The notes under the pieces: model-generated | Database searches by the model: none | Told to the model about the DNA's origin: nothing | The model's input: only the letters and a program-made list of their open reading frames with translations | Source of the DNA: a virus | Taxonomy: Duplodnaviria; Heunggongvirae; Uroviricota; Caudoviricetes | IMG/VR virus record: IMGVR_UViG_2695420427_000002 | DNA length: 8,008 nucleotides | Reading direction: 5' to 3' (one strand) | Shown: piece after piece, positions 909-7,143 of the stretch | Numbering within the stretch: the stretch's first letter is position 1 | Layout of the letters: each line of letters opens with the position of its first letter | Program-made: the position numbers and the translations under genes

Positions 909-985
909 TGGTGGCCCTTGCTGGACTTGAACCAGCGACCTGGCGATTATGAGTCGCTCGCTCTGACCAACTGAGCTAAAGGGCC
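909..985 (-). tRNA. tRNA with CAU anticodon, probably Ile2-type (AUA-reading, lysidine-modified) rather than elongator Met
   Basis: Reverse complement reads GGCCCTTTAGCTCAGTTGGTCAGAGCGAGCGACTCATAATCGCCAGGTCGCTGGTTCAAGTCCAGCAAGGGCCACCA. Acceptor stem GGCCCTT/AAGGGCC, anticodon loop CTCATAA. The anticodon and T arms resemble enterobacterial ileX-type tRNA as I recall it. 1-nt spacer to the Arg tRNA. Confidence 0.85.
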
Positions 986-1023: not shown

Positions 1024-1073
1024 ACTCATCTGACCACCAGCACGTTTAACGTCCTGTGCCGTTTTTCAGGTAT

Positions 1074-1096
1074 AAAAAAACCCGCATAAAGCGGGC
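1074..1096 (-). terminator. Short rho-independent terminator just downstream of the Q-position gene (tR'-like position)
   Basis: Inverted repeat cccgc (1081-1085) / gcggg (1091-1095) with loop ataaa. On the minus strand it is followed by seven U (plus-strand A-run 1074-1080). It lies about 80 bp downstream of the stop at 1175-1177. Confidence 0.5.
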
Positions 1097-1174
1097 TCTT
1101 TCAAATGTCCATGTCTGCTATTCGCCTCGCGGTACAGCTTTGCGAAGCGTACAAGAATTGAAGCAGTTTTTACG

Positions 1175-1729
1175 TCAAAAAGCAATAACTTTTTTCTCTA
1201 TACCAAAAGCCATAACCATTGGTTTGTACAAAATAAATTCTGCCACCTTTAGCCAATGCTCAATGCGTCTTTCACAGGTTCTTAAACTCCATTTCGGGTG
1301 TGCATCATTCAGCAGTTCAGCCATTTTGCGTTTGGTCATCCCCCGCCCCTCATACCGTTGCCGAAGGACGCTAATCAATCCTGGATGCTCTGCCAGCACC
1401 TCACTTATGACCCGATCAATACATAACGCCTCTGCATCAGTACAATGCGCCAGCCAGCTCTTTTGCTTACCGTTAATCATATCCCGCAAAAAAGCCTCAA
1501 GTTCAGACTTGTTCAGACCTGCTTTTTTCATCCTCCGGAGCGCCTCGTTAATTGCCGTTTTTGTCAGCTTTTTAGAGGTCAACATCAGGTTAAACATATT
1601 CCCCGTCTTACCGCCACCAATATACGACCAGCGCCCCCACATACGTAGTTTTCCCTGAATCCAGACACTTTCCAGCGTGGTGAGACGAAGGTGTTCTCCG
1701 CTTTTTCCTGTATTCGTTGGGTAAATCAT
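1175..1729 (-). CDS. 184-aa protein at the Q position; putative late-gene regulator/antiterminator by synteny only
   Basis: Start ATG at 1729-1727 is preceded by GAAAGGAGGG 7 nt upstream and overlaps the upstream stop (ATGA at 1726-1729), so the longer 224-aa track ORF is not the real start. It is the last gene before the terminator and tRNA array. No Zn-finger motif recognised, so Q identity is an inference. Confidence 0.6.
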   Translation of the reverse strand: MIYPTNTGKSGEHLRLTTLESVWIQGKLRMWGRWSYIGGGKTGNMFNLMLTSKKLTKTAINEALRRMKKAGLNKSELEAFLRDMINGKQKSWLAHCTDAEALCIDRVISEVLAEHPGLISVLRQRYEGRGMTKRKMAELLNDAHPKWSLRTCERRIEHWLKVAEFILYKPMVMAFGIEKKVIAF

Positions 1730-2016
1730 AAATATCCCTCCTTTCTCCAGATTTCTTGTGTGCGAAAAACACCTTCTGCATGCATCAGGCGTAATTCTTC
1801 TTTGGTGTAATCGCTGGTTTTTACCCGCCCGTCGATTAAATCGTGGCACGAGCTACAGGCAATCGCTGCCTGCATATCGTGTGGCTTTATCGCTGTTCCG
1901 CACGTTCCCGCCAGTCGGTAATGCGCCAGCACAGACGTTTCCGGATCGTGATTGCAGTAGCCAGGAATTCTGACGGTGCACATCTGCCCCCGCGCCGCTT
2001 TACGTAAATCCACCAT
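1726..2016 (-). CDS. 96-aa Cys-rich YbcO-like (DUF1364-type) nin-region protein
   Basis: Four Cys in a C-x7-C ... C-x2-C-H arrangement (CTVRIPGYC ... CSSCH), and the same 96-aa length as E. coli DLP12 YbcO as I recall it. TAATG overlap with the upstream gene at 2014-2018. Confidence 0.6.
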   Translation of the reverse strand: MVDLRKAARGQMCTVRIPGYCNHDPETSVLAHYRLAGTCGTAIKPHDMQAAIACSSCHDLIDGRVKTSDYTKEELRLMHAEGVFRTQEIWRKEGYL

Positions 2017-2615
2017 TACGCAAACTCCAGCAGCTGCGCGGCCACATTTTCGACTTGTTCCGGAGAGGAAAATTTACGGAACAGAATCCAGTTCCACAGC
2101 ACATTCAGAACAGATTTATAAACCTGCTGAAACTCGGTTTCGTCCATATTCGCAAAAGCGATGGATTTTGCCCGACGCCCGCGGCTACCGTCCGGATAAA
2201 AATGTTCGGTGTAAAATCCAGCCTGAATGGTTACCCACTCGCGAAAAGCCTCAAACGACTTTAGCAATGCCGTATCCCGGGTTCTGCGTGTCGCAACTGT
2301 ATTCAGATATTGCTCTGCGGCTTCGCTCAGAGCTGGCGTATGTTCCCGACCTACTGATTCGCACAGGTAATCAACGAAACCAGACAGCAGTTCTCGTTCG
2401 CGAGGCGTGATCGCCCCACCGACCGGAGTCCAGTAATCGAATCCCAGTTGCAGGAGTTTGAAAAAACGCTTGTGGAATGCGTAGTTACGCACACGCTTAA
2501 AGTCTGCGTGTATCCACTCACCTGTTTTGATTTGATGCAGAAAATCGCAACTCTCCGGCGTCGCCGGGAGAAGTAATCCGGAAGAGGTTTGTTTGATCAG
2601 TTGTATATGCGCCAT
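2016..2615 (-). CDS. 199-aa conserved prophage protein of unknown function (copy 1 allele)
   Basis: ATG at 2615-2613 with GGAG-type Shine-Dalgarno upstream (cggagaactacgATG). Translationally coupled to the YbcO-like gene. Present in all three cassette copies. Confidence 0.65.
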   Translation of the reverse strand: MAHIQLIKQTSSGLLLPATPESCDFLHQIKTGEWIHADFKRVRNYAFHKRFFKLLQLGFDYWTPVGGAITPRERELLSGFVDYLCESVGREHTPALSEAAEQYLNTVATRRTRDTALLKSFEAFREWVTIQAGFYTEHFYPDGSRGRRAKSIAFANMDETEFQQVYKSVLNVLWNWILFRKFSSPEQVENVAAQLLEFA

Positions 2616-2662
2616 CGTAGTTCTCCGCTGGCGCAGTAGAATGGGTGTTCAGCCCGTTATGT

Positions 2663-2691: not shown

Positions 2692-2797
2692 AGGATGCTC
2701 TGACTCGCAATTCATCCAGCAGTTTATCATTTCCCATAATGTCACTTACCCTCATCGGTAAAAAAATTGCCTTTCGACCATAGAAGCAGTTTTTACG

Positions 2798-3352
2798 TCA
2801 AAAAGCAATAACTTTTTTCTCTATACCAAAAGCCATAACCATTGGTTTGTACAAAATAAATTCTGCCACCTTTAGCCAATGCTCAATGCGTCTTTCACAG
2901 GTTCTTAAACTCCATTTCGGGTGTGCATCATTCAGCAGTTCAGCCATTTTGCGTTTGGTCATCCCCCGCCCCTCATACCGTTGCCGAAGGACGCTAATCA
3001 ATCCTGGATGCTCTGCCAGCACCTCACTTATGACCCGATCAATACATAACGCCTCTGCATCAGTACAATGCGCCAGCCAGCTCTTTTGCTTACCGTTAAT
3101 CATATCCCGCAAAAAAGCCTCAAGTTCAGACTTGTTCAGACCTGCTTTTTTCATCCTCCGGAGCGCCTCGTTAATTGCCGTTTTTGTCAGCTTTTTAGAG
3201 GTCAACATCAGGTTAAACATATTCCCCGTCTTACCGCCACCAATATACGACCAGCGCCCCCACATACGTAGTTTTCCCTGAATCCAGACACTTTCCAGCG
3301 TGGTGAGACGAAGGTGTTCTCCGCTTTTTCCTGTATTCGTTGGGTAAATCAT
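2798..3352 (-). CDS. 184-aa Q-position protein, copy 2 (identical protein to copy 1)
   Basis: Identical translation to 1175-1729, same Shine-Dalgarno and ATGA coupling. Here it is followed after 15 bp by the unique junction, not by the terminator and tRNAs. Confidence 0.6.
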   Translation of the reverse strand: MIYPTNTGKSGEHLRLTTLESVWIQGKLRMWGRWSYIGGGKTGNMFNLMLTSKKLTKTAINEALRRMKKAGLNKSELEAFLRDMINGKQKSWLAHCTDAEALCIDRVISEVLAEHPGLISVLRQRYEGRGMTKRKMAELLNDAHPKWSLRTCERRIEHWLKVAEFILYKPMVMAFGIEKKVIAF

Positions 3353-3639
3353 AAATATCCCTCCTTTCTCCAGATTTCTTGTGTGCGAAAAACACCTTCT
3401 GCATGCATCAGGCGTAATTCTTCTTTGGTGTAATCGCTGGTTTTTACCCGCCCGTCGATTAAATCGTGGCACGAGCTACAGGCAATCGCTGCCTGCATAT
3501 CGTGTGGCTTTATCGCTGTTCCGCACGTTCCCGCCAGTCGGTAATGCGCCAGCACAGACGTTTCCGGATCGTGATTGCAGTAGCCAGGAATTCTGACGGT
3601 GCACATCTGCCCCCGCGCCGCTTTACGTAAATCCACCAT
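3349..3639 (-). CDS. YbcO-like 96-aa protein, copy 2
   Basis: Identical translation to 1726-2016. Confidence 0.6.
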   Translation of the reverse strand: MVDLRKAARGQMCTVRIPGYCNHDPETSVLAHYRLAGTCGTAIKPHDMQAAIACSSCHDLIDGRVKTSDYTKEELRLMHAEGVFRTQEIWRKEGYL

Positions 3640-4238
3640 TACGCAAACTCCAGCAGCTGCGCGGCCACATTTTCGACTTGTTCCGGAGAGGAAAATTTAC
3701 GGAACAGAATCCAGTTCCACAGCACATTCAGAACAGATTTATAAACCTGCTGAAACTCGGTTTCGTCCATATTCGCAAACGCGATAGATTTCGCCCGACA
3801 CCCACGGCTACCGTCCGGATAAAAATGCTCGGTGTAAAATCCGGCCTGAATGGCTACCCACTCGCGGAAAGCCTCAAACGACTTTAGCAATGCCGTATCA
3901 CTGGTTCTGCGTGTCGCAACTGTATTCAGATATTGCTCTGCGGCTTCGCTCAGAGCTGGCGTATGTTCCCGGCCTACTGATTCACACAGGTAATCAACGA
4001 AACCGGACACCAGTTTTCGTTCGCGAGGCGTGATCGCCCCACCGACCGGAGTCCAGTAATCGAAACCCAGTTGCAGGAGTTTGAAAAAACGCTTGTGGAA
4101 TGCGTAGTTACACACACGCTTAAAGTCTGCGTGTATCCACTCACCTATTTTGATTTGATGCAGAAAATCGCAACTCTCCGGCGTCGCCGGGAGAAGTAAT
4201 CCGGAAGAGGTTTGTTTGACCAGTTGTATATGTGCCAT
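3639..4238 (-). CDS. 199-aa conserved prophage protein, copy 2 (divergent allele, 7 aa differences)
   Basis: ATG at 4238-4236 with Shine-Dalgarno (ccggagaaagccgATG). The 213-aa track ORF begins at a TTG at 4280 and is probably not the true start. Differs from copies 1 and 3 at T/I, R/C, EL/KV, R/S, T/A and R/C. Confidence 0.65.
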   Translation of the reverse strand: MAHIQLVKQTSSGLLLPATPESCDFLHQIKIGEWIHADFKRVCNYAFHKRFFKLLQLGFDYWTPVGGAITPRERKLVSGFVDYLCESVGREHTPALSEAAEQYLNTVATRRTSDTALLKSFEAFREWVAIQAGFYTEHFYPDGSRGCRAKSIAFANMDETEFQQVYKSVLNVLWNWILFRKFSSPEQVENVAAQLLEFA

Positions 4239-4276
4239 CGGCTTTCTCCGGTGGCACGGTGTTACACAGCAGGAGT

Positions 4277-4564
4277 TCAATCCTGCTCAAGATTGTAGAT
4301 GAGTTTATTCTTCAGCAAAAGCAGAAAACCAGCCTTAAAACCAATCTCTTTCAAAACCCGTAATGATGTGACAAATTCGTCCTCACGCAAAATAAAACCG
4401 TCCGTCAGAAGTCCATTACAAAAATAAAATAACACAGCACCGCTCTTCCTTTGTTGAGATTGCAAACATCTAATGCGGCAATGGCTGACAATCGCTCCAT
4501 TCTCAACGCGCACAGCATAGAGGCCATTTTCACTAAAAATTTCACGCAATTCTTCGATTTTCAT
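4277..4564 (-). CDS. 95-aa hypothetical protein, first gene of the operon (at the position rem occupies in E. coli Qin)
   Basis: ATG at 4564-4562 with GGAAGG about 10 nt upstream and a candidate promoter about 80 bp upstream. Identical second copy at 6275-6562. Function unknown. Confidence 0.5.
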   Translation of the reverse strand: MKIEELREIFSENGLYAVRVENGAIVSHCRIRCLQSQQRKSGAVLFYFCNGLLTDGFILREDEFVTSLRVLKEIGFKAGFLLLLKNKLIYNLEQD

Positions 4565-4645
4565 CTTCAGAATCCTTCCAGATAAATAGCTCTCCCCTGT
4601 TCGGGGTCCATCCCTCTTCTCCCTGCGCGCTACTTAAGTGAGTCG

Positions 4646-4673
4646 ATTCTATCTGCGAAGGTGCGCGAATCAA
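4646..4673 (-). promoter_or_regulatory. Candidate sigma70 promoter for the 95-aa / 199-aa / YbcO-like / Q-position operon (TTGATT-16-TAGAAT)
   Basis: Minus-strand -35 TTGATT (plus 4668-4673), 16-bp spacer, -10 TAGAAT (plus 4646-4651), about 80 bp upstream of the 95-aa gene start. Confidence 0.4.
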
Positions 4674-4693
4674 ATTCACCGGAAATAAACAAC

Positions 4694-4736
4694 AAAAAAC
4701 CCGCCGAAACGCTGAGAGATCACAGCGATGGGCGGG
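4694..4736 (-). terminator. Rho-independent terminator downstream of hok
   Basis: Nested hairpin: outer arms cccgcc (4700-4705) / ggcggg (4731-4736), inner stem cgctg/cagcg. On the minus strand it is followed by six U (plus-strand aaaaaa 4694-4699). A 9-bp GC stem gggcgggga/tccccgccc at 4778-4805 lies in the hok 3' UTR. Confidence 0.55.
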
Positions 4737-4813
4737 TTAAGTGCGGGTGCGTTGAGGATGCCTGACACATCAGAGGTGGGCGGGGATGGGATCAGCTCCC
4801 CGCCCGGTCACTC

Positions 4814-4969
4814 TTACTTCCTGGATTCGTAGTCTACGAAGACAGCGACCTCCGTCTGGCCGGTTCGGATTCGTACCTCACAGAGGTCTTTCCTCGTTAC
4901 CAGTGCCGTCACTATGACGGTTAAACAGATGACGATCAGGGCGATTAACATCGCCTTTTGCTGCTTCAT
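4814..4969 (-). CDS. hok: Hok/Gef-family type I toxin (51 aa), copy lacking its own promoter
   Basis: MKQQKAMLIALIVICLTVIVTALVTRKDLCEVRIRTGQTEVAVFVDYESRK: single transmembrane helix followed by the Hok-family LTRK-LCE-R-R-G-EVA-F motif, close to HokD/RelF as I recall it. Shine-Dalgarno AAGGAG upstream of the ATG at 4969. The track ORF is an in-frame upstream extension to 5026. Confidence 0.85.
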   Translation of the reverse strand: MKQQKAMLIALIVICLTVIVTALVTRKDLCEVRIRTGQTEVAVFVDYESRK

Positions 4970-5047
4970 AGCCTGCTTCTCCTTGCCTTTCGGCATGTAA
5001 GAGGCTAACCTACATGTGCAAAGCATGAAATTGGCCTCAGATTAATG

Positions 5048-5350
5048 TTAAGCGTCTTGCCGGACGCGTAATGTTAACTGGGGCTTTTCTCTATCTGCCT
5101 TTTGGTGTTCATGCCTGAAAAGTTCAGACTTGTTCAGACCTGCTTTTTTCATCCTCCGGAGCGCCTCGTTAATTGCCGTTTTTGTCAGCTTTTTAGAGGT
5201 CAACATCAGGTTAAACATATTCCCCGTCTTACCGCCACCAATATACGACCAGCGCCCCCACATACGTAGTTTTCCCTGAATCCAGACACTTTCCAGCGTG
5301 GTGAGACGAAGGTGTTCTCCGCTTTTTCCTGTATTCGTTGGGTAAATCAT
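5048..5350 (-). pseudogene. Truncated Q-position gene: first 76 codons fused at the repeat junction to the hok leader, giving a 24-aa unrelated tail
   Basis: Identical to the 5' part of 1175-1729 down to about 5120. The translation then diverges (ELFRHEHQKADREKPQLTLRVRQDA) because the sequence beyond 5119 is the end of the neighbouring repeat unit. Confidence 0.75.
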
Positions 5351-5637
5351 AAATATCCCTCCTTTCTCCAGATTTCTTGTGTGCGAAAAACACCTTCTGC
5401 ATGCATCAGGCGTAATTCTTCTTTGGTGTAATCGCTGGTTTTTACCCGCCCGTCGATTAAATCGTGGCACGAGCTACAGGCAATCGCTGCCTGCATATCG
5501 TGTGGCTTTATCGCTGTTCCGCACGTTCCCGCCAGTCGGTAATGCGCCAGCACAGACGTTTCCGGATCGTGATTGCAGTAGCCAGGAATTCTGACGGTGC
5601 ACATCTGCCCCCGCGCCGCTTTACGTAAATCCACCAT
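5347..5637 (-). CDS. YbcO-like 96-aa protein, copy 3
   Basis: Identical translation to 1726-2016. Confidence 0.6.
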   Translation of the reverse strand: MVDLRKAARGQMCTVRIPGYCNHDPETSVLAHYRLAGTCGTAIKPHDMQAAIACSSCHDLIDGRVKTSDYTKEELRLMHAEGVFRTQEIWRKEGYL

Positions 5638-6236
5638 TACGCAAACTCCAGCAGCTGCGCGGCCACATTTTCGACTTGTTCCGGAGAGGAAAATTTACGG
5701 AACAGAATCCAGTTCCACAGCACATTCAGAACAGATTTATAAACCTGCTGAAACTCGGTTTCGTCCATATTCGCAAAAGCGATGGATTTTGCCCGACGCC
5801 CGCGGCTACCGTCCGGATAAAAATGTTCGGTGTAAAATCCAGCCTGAATGGTTACCCACTCGCGAAAAGCCTCAAACGACTTTAGCAATGCCGTATCCCG
5901 GGTTCTGCGTGTCGCAACTGTATTCAGATATTGCTCTGCGGCTTCGCTCAGAGCTGGCGTATGTTCCCGACCTACTGATTCGCACAGGTAATCAACGAAA
6001 CCAGACAGCAGTTCTCGTTCGCGAGGCGTGATCGCCCCACCGACCGGAGTCCAGTAATCGAATCCCAGTTGCAGGAGTTTGAAAAAACGCTTGTGGAATG
6101 CGTAGTTACGCACACGCTTAAAGTCTGCGTGTATCCACTCACCTGTTTTGATTTGATGCAGAAAATCGCAACTCTCCGGCGTCGCCGGGAGAAGTAATCC
6201 GGAAGAGGTTTGTTTGACCAGTTGTATATGTGCCAT
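5637..6236 (-). CDS. 199-aa conserved prophage protein, copy 3 (recombinant allele)
   Basis: The 5' end matches copy 2 (V at residue 7, same upstream sequence) while the body matches copy 1 at all the variable sites. Confidence 0.65.
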   Translation of the reverse strand: MAHIQLVKQTSSGLLLPATPESCDFLHQIKTGEWIHADFKRVRNYAFHKRFFKLLQLGFDYWTPVGGAITPRERELLSGFVDYLCESVGREHTPALSEAAEQYLNTVATRRTRDTALLKSFEAFREWVTIQAGFYTEHFYPDGSRGRRAKSIAFANMDETEFQQVYKSVLNVLWNWILFRKFSSPEQVENVAAQLLEFA

Positions 6237-6274
6237 CGGCTTTCTCCGGTGGCACGGTGTTACACAGCAGGAGT

Positions 6275-6562
6275 TCAATCCTGCTCAAGATTGTAGATGA
6301 GTTTATTCTTCAGCAAAAGCAGAAAACCAGCCTTAAAACCAATCTCTTTCAAAACCCGTAATGATGTGACAAATTCGTCCTCACGCAAAATAAAACCGTC
6401 CGTCAGAAGTCCATTACAAAAATAAAATAACACAGCACCGCTCTTCCTTTGTTGAGATTGCAAACATCTAATGCGGCAATGGCTGACAATCGCTCCATTC
6501 TCAACGCGCACAGCATAGAGGCCATTTTCACTAAAAATTTCACGCAATTCTTCGATTTTCAT
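6275..6562 (-). CDS. 95-aa hypothetical protein, second copy
   Basis: Identical to 4277-4564, with the same Shine-Dalgarno and upstream promoter candidate. Confidence 0.5.
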   Translation of the reverse strand: MKIEELREIFSENGLYAVRVENGAIVSHCRIRCLQSQQRKSGAVLFYFCNGLLTDGFILREDEFVTSLRVLKEIGFKAGFLLLLKNKLIYNLEQD

Positions 6563-6643
6563 CTTCAGAATCCTTCCAGATAAATAGCTCTCCCCTGTTC
6601 GGGGTCCATCCCTCTTCTCCCTGCGCGCTACTTAAGTGAGTCG

Positions 6644-6671
6644 ATTCTATCTGCGAAGGTGCGCGAATCAA
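6644..6671 (-). promoter_or_regulatory. Candidate operon promoter, second copy (TTGATT-16-TAGAAT)
   Basis: Same sequence as 4646-4673 at the 1998-bp offset. Confidence 0.4.
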
Positions 6672-6691
6672 ATTCACCGGAAATAAACAAC

Positions 6692-6734
6692 AAAAAACCC
6701 GCCGAAACGCTGAGAGATCACAGCGATGGGCGGG
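6692..6734 (-). terminator. Terminator downstream of hok, second copy
   Basis: Same sequence as 4694-4736 at the 1998-bp offset. Confidence 0.55.
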
Positions 6735-6811
6735 TTAAGTGCGGGTGCGTTGAGGATGCCTGACACATCAGAGGTGGGCGGGGATGGGATCAGCTCCCCG
6801 CCCGGTCACTC

Positions 6812-6967
6812 TTACTTCCTGGATTCGTAGTCTACGAAGACAGCGACCTCCGTCTGGCCGGTTCGGATTCGTACCTCACAGAGGTCTTTCCTCGTTACCA
6901 GTGCCGTCACTATGACGGTTAAACAGATGACGATCAGGGCGATTAACATCGCCTTTTGCTGCTTCAT
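6812..6967 (-). CDS. hok: Hok/Gef-family type I toxin (51 aa), copy with its native upstream region
   Basis: Identical to 4814-4969. Its leader extends into unique sequence at 7118-7194 that contains a promoter candidate. Confidence 0.85.
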   Translation of the reverse strand: MKQQKAMLIALIVICLTVIVTALVTRKDLCEVRIRTGQTEVAVFVDYESRK

Positions 6968-7143
6968 AGCCTGCTTCTCCTTGCCTTTCGGCATGTAAGA
7001 GGCTAACCTACATGTGCAAAGCATGAAATTGGCCTCAGATTAATGTTAAGCGTCTTGCCGGACGCGTAATGTTAACTGGGGCTTTTCTCTATCTGCCTTT
7101 TGGTGTTCATGCCTGAAGCAGATAGCCTCAAGCACCCGCAGTC

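Follow-up and report, generated by a model that had tools for sequence, protein, structure and literature searches.

A blunt tandem duplication in the nin/Q region of a lambdoid prophage carries a second hok copy without promoter and tac element

Genes of the hok type are enriched in prophages (bioRxiv 10.1101/2025.08.07.668861). In the full-length hok mRNA, pairing between the tac and fbi elements stabilises a closed form in which the anti-Shine-Dalgarno (anti-SD) element ucb covers the Shine-Dalgarno (SD) sequence of mok, and in hok of plasmid R1 the closed-to-open switch is blocked, and toxicity lost, upon any tac substitution at G4, C5 or T6 (PMC9841398). The hokW-sokW locus of Sp5 (VT2-Sakai) is a working type I toxin-antitoxin system, whose toxin is made when Sp5 is induced with mitomycin C and helps to release the phage (PMC8621323). 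In K-12, the relBEF promoter drives a joint transcript of relBE and relF (hokD) (PMC3598666). The stretch of DNA analysed here (8,008 bp, IMG/VR virus record IMGVR_UViG_2695420427_000002; hereafter the window) is the nin/Q region of a lambdoid prophage with its closest relatives in Shigella sonnei and Escherichia coli, and contains two copies of a hok/mok/sok locus. Copy 2 follows a blunt duplication joint at 5119/5120 (junction 1), which truncates the Q-position gene, and lacks its promoter together with the first 20 nucleotides of the hok mRNA, i.e., the whole of tac. With a probability of about 0.6, copy 2 is a disarmed and largely silent passenger, carried along in an illegitimate duplication by which the antitoxin genes are doubled.

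The hok locus of the window shares about 92% nucleotide identity with hokW-mokW-sokW of 933W and Sp5 over the locus, and toxicity of its Hok and neutralisation by its Sok may be presumed by analogy with that system. In common with hokW of 933W, it has a 51-residue Hok, an in-frame 70-residue mok open reading frame (ORF), an antisense sok, the -10 element, the mRNA 5' end and fbi, while the hok ORF is recognised by Pfam PF01848 (79.9 bits) and by the MokW-like PHROG 251. The neighbours differ, as hokW of 933W is flanked by unrelated hypothetical genes and hok of the window by QueH and rem. Unlike the 933W/Sp5 locus, the window has two hok copies, the second of which is devoid of the promoter and nucleotides 1–20.

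Junction 1 and the second hok copy

The repeat map revealed a 1998-bp direct repeat, in which positions 3122–5119 equal 5120–7117 except for 19 single-nucleotide polymorphisms (SNPs), all confined to 3780–4147 inside DUF1367. On the hok side the match stops at 5119 (=7117) and the following bases differ (G vs A), while on the Q side it begins at 5120 (=3122=1499) and the bases before it differ (C vs A); the overlap at junction 1 is therefore 0 bp. The hok-side parent reads CATGCCTGAA/GCAGAT and the Q-side parent AAGCCTC/AAGTTCAGAC, where the window has CATGCCTGAA/AAGTTCAGAC. The breakpoints lie after nucleotide 231 of the Q-like gene and after nucleotide 20 of the hok mRNA leader, and the Q-like gene, cut at codon 77, is fused at junction 1 to a hokW-type leader that begins with nucleotide +21. 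The sequence-only reading, which had proposed a blunt joint with at most 1 bp of shared sequence and a truncated Q-position gene at this site, is confirmed in both respects.

A 9-bp identity, CTTGAGGCT, is shared by nucleotides 229–237 of the Q gene and nucleotides 6–14 of the hok leader (7132–7124, in the tac region), and is present in the intact Q copies at 3116–3124 and 1493–1501 (equivalent to 5114–5122). It lies near junction 1 but is unused, and a microhomology join at this identity would have retained 15 of the 20 lost leader nucleotides. An origin of junction 1 via CTTGAGGCT, GCCTSAAG or TCTG..CTT was rejected, as the observed sequence would need extra steps; since no microhomology candidate yields junction 1 without such steps, the joint is called blunt. 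With a head-to-tail direct repeat, one novel joint and no overlap of the parental breakpoints, junction 1 has the sequence features of a joint created when illegitimate recombination duplicates a segment, here of 1998 bp, in tandem.

Copy 1 is preceded by TTGATT-18-TAGAAT (7173–7144, minus strand), the sole promoter-like site upstream of either hok copy; this hexamer pair had already been placed outside the repeat, and neither scan returned another candidate. Its -10 element and the mRNA 5' end (GGGTGCTTGAGG, GGGTGCTTGAGGCTATCTGC) are conserved in the hokW locus of 933W and the hok locus of an O145 prophage. The Rfam model RF01794 (sok/hok leader; gathering score 59 bits) matches copy 1 at 7137–6962 with 117 bits over all model positions 1–157, and its position 1 aligns to 7137, 7 nucleotides past the -10 element. 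In the minimum free energy fold of the copy 1 mRNA, nucleotides 1–12 pair with nucleotides 383–395 (CCUCAACGCACCC), which is the tac/fbi end pairing typical of hok mRNAs; the tac and fbi columns are invariant across the aligned loci and lend no covariation support, so that this pairing is a prediction. The mok initiation region has a predicted opening energy of 14.8 kcal/mol in the full-length RNA and of 7.1 kcal/mol upon 3' trimming. Copy 1 matches hok/sok of plasmid R1, whose tac/fbi/ucb/dcb switch supplied the definitions of the elements (PMC9841398), in both the end pairing and the drop in opening energy on trimming, and reproduces the hok RNA switch in silico. On the opposite strand, sok copy 1 was mapped from the annotated sokW of phage 933W, and has a promoter-like TTGCCT-17-TAACCT (6981–7009, plus strand; hexamers read from the sequence by eye).

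As the breakpoint lies inside the hok transcript, copy 2 is without the promoter and also without mRNA nucleotides 1–20, which are replaced by Q sequence, and tac is thus absent. From nucleotide +21 on, copy 2 has the sequence of copy 1, with sok and its promoter, ucb, mok, hok, fbi and the terminator retained, and RF01794 scores 52.3 bits on it (5140–4964), which is under the gathering score. A lax scan (at least 8 of 12 matches) found no fortuitous promoter within 430 nucleotides upstream of copy 2, the truncated Q gene (Q') included. This promoterless copy can therefore be transcribed only as the tail of a rem-DUF1367-YbcO-Q' message. The promoter scans and the anatomy of the repeat agree with the earlier statement that the hok ORF of copy 2 has no native promoter and depends on transcription from upstream. 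The account of copy 2 as a case of promoter loss is right as to the promoter but incomplete, as nucleotides 1–20 with tac are gone as well; read-through transcription alone need therefore not give toxin.

Without tac, neither the locked nor the open state known from plasmid R1 should be able to form in copy 2. Its mok region has a predicted opening energy of 10.3–11.9 kcal/mol in any upstream context, 3'-trimmed or not, and the RNA switch is, on these models, gone. Because sok lies wholly inside the duplicated segment, the antitoxin genes are doubled and autonomous toxin transcripts are not. In a lysogen, copy 2 would yield Sok but no autonomous hok mRNA, and upon prophage induction it would be present in RNA only as the 3' portion of rem-DUF1367-YbcO-Q' transcripts. 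This read-through RNA would form neither the tac/fbi lock nor the tac/ucb "open" stem, and the anti-SD would stay on the mok SD regardless of 3' trimming. The silence of Hok from copy 2 is expected from the folding and the published genetics of R1, and the single predicted effect of copy 2 is a doubled dose of Sok.

In both copies, a further promoter-like sequence, TTGATT-16-TAGAAT, separates the terminator of hok from rem (6671–6644 and 4673–4646, minus strand), and the equivalent site of K-12 Qin is TTGAAG-18-TAGAAT (locus L005, ~2480–2510). If active, this sequence would be the nearest source of transcripts into hok copy 2. In the single-copy loci L001 and L012, the lone hok lies between QueH and rem and shares the strand of the early phage genes around it, so that transcription from upstream into hok is probably normal in this prophage family.

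The dependence of copy 2 on an upstream operon had been called an unusual regulatory context for a type I toxin, a view which does not stand against hokD/relF of K-12. The Qin order hokD-rem-ydfU-ydfT, where ydfT is annotated as putative Q antiterminator, represents the same prophage position, and hokD is likewise promoterless and served by the relBE transcript. When aligned with hok of the window, hokD is homologous only from the hok SD onwards; the sequence upstream is the 3' end of relE, and fbi is kept. Both hokD and copy 2 have lost the promoter and 5' leader by fusion to an upstream operon and have kept fbi. However, hokD has lost promoter, tac, sok and the mok start, whereas copy 2 has lost only the promoter and 20 nucleotides, with sok, ucb and mok still in place; hokD is fused to relE, and copy 2 to a truncated Q-like gene reading into the leader. 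Compared with hokD, copy 2 is a less severe truncation of this kind, joined to another upstream gene. A hok gene that has no promoter and follows another operon is thus already known, and the window is a new instance of it.

The truncated Q gene, the three-unit array and its relatives

The Q-position gene encodes a DUF1133 protein, labelled "anti-termination protein Q-like" in PHROGs. The intact protein of unit 2 matches DUF1133 with 356.7 bits and, weakly, Phage_antitermQ (PF06530; 29.4 bits, residues 69–163) in Pfam. The fusion ORF at junction 1 encodes 100 residues, comprising 77 native DUF1133 codons (codon 77 at 5122–5120) and 23 unrelated residues (FRHEHQKADREKPQLTLRVRQDA), followed by UAA (5050–5048); the truncation had been recognised before, with counts (76 and 24) that were off by one. 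The ORF covers only positions 1–78 of 176 in Pfam DUF1133 and 1–90 of 189 in PHROG 753, and residues 78–184 are gone together with most of the Phage_antitermQ-like region. Its translation start has the SD sequence AGGAGG 7 nucleotides before an AUG that overlaps the YbcO stop codon (AUGA). Neither exact look-up nor homology search in a collection of 15 billion protein sequences returned a match to the fusion protein with its tail. Most likely, Q' is a dead fragment without the Phage_antitermQ-like part, carrying a 23-residue tail out of context.

A second blunt joint (junction 2, 2782/2783) connects the 15 bp after the unit-2 Q stop to a foreign segment, U. In at least 144 E. coli genomes, DUF1367 is preceded by a different small gene, and U matches the 3' end of that gene with 100% identity. 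Base 2782 (A) fits neither parent (both T), and is either an untemplated base or an SNP exactly at the joint. With junction 2 and a third DUF1367-YbcO-Q unit, the window is a three-unit array, and it is most likely that two non-homologous joints expanded a single-copy locus of ~4.4 kb into it. The position of the breakpoint inside the hok transcript, the retention of sok, junction 2 and the third unit had all escaped the sequence-only reading. The allele region of DUF1367 (~370 bp; 3780–4147 vs 5778–6145 vs 2157–2524) is identical in units 1 and 3 (allele a), whereas unit 2 has allele b, as do the single-copy relatives.

Immediately downstream of the distal (unit 3) Q lies a hairpin, GCCCGC-TTTAT-GCGGGT, followed by a T run (1072–1160, minus strand), which resembles a short terminated leader such as would be expected to run from a late promoter to its Q-dependent terminator. 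This hairpin is not part of the 15 bp retained behind the unit-2 Q, and only unit 3 therefore adjoins the late control region. Sub-threshold Rfam matches at 1072–1159 (Trp_leader, 23.1 bits; isrK, 19.9 bits) and elsewhere were taken as chance.

E. coli FDAARGOS_944 and FDAARGOS_943 each carry the same locus as a single copy (~4.4 kb) in a lambdoid prophage, flanked by the replication genes on one side and by the tRNA, holin and lysozyme genes on the other. An S. sonnei draft (L012) also has it as a single copy, with a sequence that matches window positions 2783–5119 at 100% identity. Neither joint was found elsewhere in 5,426 complete E. coli genomes, IMG/VR, GTDB species representatives, JGI metagenomes or INPHARED phages. 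The protein search identified an S. sonnei protein in which the same 77 N-terminal Q residues are fused to the C-terminal part of IS2 InsC. The S. sonnei draft contig CXAQ01000120.1 contains QueH-hok-rem-DUF1367-YbcO-Q'77 followed by IS2 without its first ~300 bp, then DUF1367-YbcO-Q'77 with the same IS2 fragment, and finally DUF1367-YbcO-Q. Positions 3121–5119 and 1039–2658 of the window are each 100% identical to units of this contig, the latter to its third unit. Like the window, the contig has the same module three times, with Q cut within nucleotides 223–232 and two units 100% identical; it differs in that its 10-bp microhomology joins lead to the interior of IS2 and only one hok copy is present, where the window has blunt joins and the hok leader. 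No single event was found by which either of the two arrays, that of the window and the IS2 array of S. sonnei, could have given rise to the other. We read these arrays as a sign that the DUF1367-YbcO-Q module is prone to amplification in the S. sonnei lineage.

The Q/IS2 joint of CXAQ01000120.1 lies in a 10-bp identity, TCTGAACTTG, which is Q nucleotides 223–232 and IS2 nucleotides ~302–311, and the Q breakpoint of the window (nucleotides 231/232) falls within the same stretch. The Q gene is hence broken within the same 10 bp in the window (blunt, to the hok leader) and twice in the S. sonnei contig (to IS2); the coordinates of this region are 5120–5129 in the window (Q nucleotides 222–231), 10223–10232 and 12403–12412 in the contig (L006), and 491–500 in locus L007. 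A direct repeat, GTCTGAAC-AA-GTCTGAAC, is located in Q at the shared breakpoint, which could be a recombination hotspot or reflect common history.

All genes of the window are on the minus strand, and in the sense of transcription their order is QueH, hok/sok, rem, DUF1367, YbcO, DUF1133 (Q-like), tRNAs and lysis genes (Table 1). The exact 228-residue QueH product is present in S. sonnei Ss046, S. boydii Sb227 and many S. sonnei drafts, and neither joint was found in the Shigella records carrying it. The window very probably derives from S. sonnei or a near relative. The tRNA cluster, between Q and the lysis genes, has the order CAU, Arg-UCU, Thr-UGU and Gly-UCC. The tRNA with the CAU anticodon (909–985, minus strand) is called Met by ARAGORN, and the identical gene of FDAARGOS_944 is annotated as tRNA-Ile in RefSeq.

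Table 1. Coordinates of the genes, repeat units and hok/sok elements in the window
Feature	Position	Strand	Remarks
QueH (epoxyqueuosine reductase)	7860-7195	-	Upstream of hok copy 1
hok mRNA copy 1, full length	6697-7137	-	441 nt
tac, copy 1	7137-7126	-	
Repeat unit, promoter-proximal copy	5120-7117	-	Q'(1-77), YbcO, DUF1367 allele a, rem, hok/mok/sok from mRNA nt +21
Anti-SD (ucb), copy 1	~7089-7076	-	
sok copy 1	7016-7086	+	
mok SD, copy 1	7036-7033	-	
hok/mok copy 1	7024-6812	-	mok AUG 7024, hok AUG 6967, stop 6812
fbi, copy 1	6755-6743	-	
Terminator hairpin, copy 1	6735-6697	-	
rem-family ORF, first	6562-6275	-	
DUF1367, unit 1	6236-5637	-	Allele a
YbcO/DUF1364, unit 1	5637-5347	-	
Truncated DUF1133 fusion ORF (Q')	5350-5048	-	
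Repeat unit, second copy	3122-5119	-	DUF1367 allele b
hok locus copy 2, 5'-truncated	4699-5119	-	Without promoter and mRNA nt 1-20 (all of tac); terminator kept
Anti-SD (ucb), copy 2	5091-5078	-	
sok copy 2	5018-5088	+	Wholly inside duplicated segment
mok SD, copy 2	5038-5035	-	
hok/mok copy 2	5026-4814	-	mok AUG 5026, hok ORF 4969-4814
fbi, copy 2	4757-4745	-	
rem, second	4564-4277	-	
DUF1367, unit 2	4238-3639	-	Allele b
YbcO, unit 2	3639-3349	-	
DUF1133 Q-like gene, unit 2	3352-2798	-	Intact, 184 aa
Foreign segment U	2782-2628	-	155 bp
Unit 3 (Q, YbcO, DUF1367 allele a)	1160-2627	-	Matches 2783-4250 at offset 1623
DUF1367, unit 3	2615-2016	-	Allele a
YbcO, unit 3	2016-1726	-	
DUF1133 Q-like gene, unit 3	1729-1175	-	Intact, adjoins tRNA cluster and late region
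Four tRNA genes	985-675	-	

Alternative explanations and significance

Several points weigh against copy 2 as the silent passenger of a real duplication. The structure rests on one assembly, as both joints and the fusion protein are unmatched in the collections searched, and the a-b-a order of the DUF1367 alleles is unlike a simple recent duplication and implies an extra step of gene conversion or recombination (between prophages). The silence of copy 2 is moreover a prediction, as its mok region should be ~3-4 kcal/mol easier to open than that of the locked copy 1, and the tail ORF of Q' crosses the anti-SD and could unmask mok. The assembly points would be accounted for if near-identical prophage modules (alleles a and b and the U-type locus) had given rise to a chimeric array, or at least to junction 1, by an assembly or consensus artefact, which we consider unlikely. 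Both joints are unique to the window among the collections searched, the fusion ORF is missing from 15 billion proteins, each unit is 100% identical to a separate natural S. sonnei segment, and the DUF1367 alleles alternate. However, mis-resolved repeats are joined within shared sequence, whereas both joints of the window are blunt and connect unrelated sequences, and assemblers collapse tandem repeats more often than they expand them. An independent S. sonnei draft also holds a three-unit array with Q broken within the same 10 bp, which makes a real amplification at this site plausible.

The folding points lead to the possibility, which we regard as rather doubtful, that copy 2 is functionally rewired, in that translation of the Q' tail on the read-through operon RNA would open mok without tac and couple Hok to the expression of the early operon upon induction. 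The tail ORF crosses ucb and stops 9 nucleotides before the mok SD and 21 nucleotides before the mok AUG, the start of Q' is favourable to translation (strong SD, AUG overlapping the YbcO stop), and in the predicted fold of the read-through RNA the mok SD/AUG (5040–5024) pairs with 5078–5091 inside the tail ORF. With either the tail ORF or the area covered by a terminating ribosome kept unpaired, the calculated opening energy decreases from 11.1 to ~4 kcal/mol, which is below that of activated copy 1 (7.1 kcal/mol), and the making of HokW upon Sp5 induction (PMC8621323) would fit such timing. This case is thermodynamic only, however, and two sok genes remain, whose Sok covers 5088–5018, a stretch that takes in the mok initiation region and the last part of the tail ORF. 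An open tail of 23 codons is also about the chance expectation, there is no sign of selection for the Q'-hok arrangement, and the fusion occurs nowhere else in the collections searched. Synthesis of Hok from copy 2 which would need neither tac nor 3' processing, but translational coupling to the early operon, is rated improbable. That the 100-residue Q' protein is itself functional, for example as a dominant-negative or modulating antiterminator fragment, is very improbable; it has a good SD and the intact N-terminal half of DUF1133, but lacks residues 78–184 with most of the Phage_antitermQ-like region (69–163), and its tail stems from an arbitrary reading frame of the leader RNA, with no homolog carrying the tail in the protein collection.

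Copy 2 is a natural deletion of tac with the anti-SD, mok, hok, fbi and sok intact, and thus bears on the necessity of tac outside plasmid R1 and on the replacement of tac by an invading upstream ORF. Together with the IS2-joined array of S. sonnei, the locus flags Q nucleotides 223–232 as a recurrent breakpoint in the module. Beyond these points, it is a strain-specific structural variant. If coupling to the Q' tail were true, the control of a type I toxin would have moved from RNA processing to translational coupling. If real, the locus would hold a natural intermediate position, with an intact phage hok/sok module on one side and the fully decapitated hokD of K-12 on the other, and would show how hok genes in prophage nin regions decay or become rewired through illegitimate recombination.

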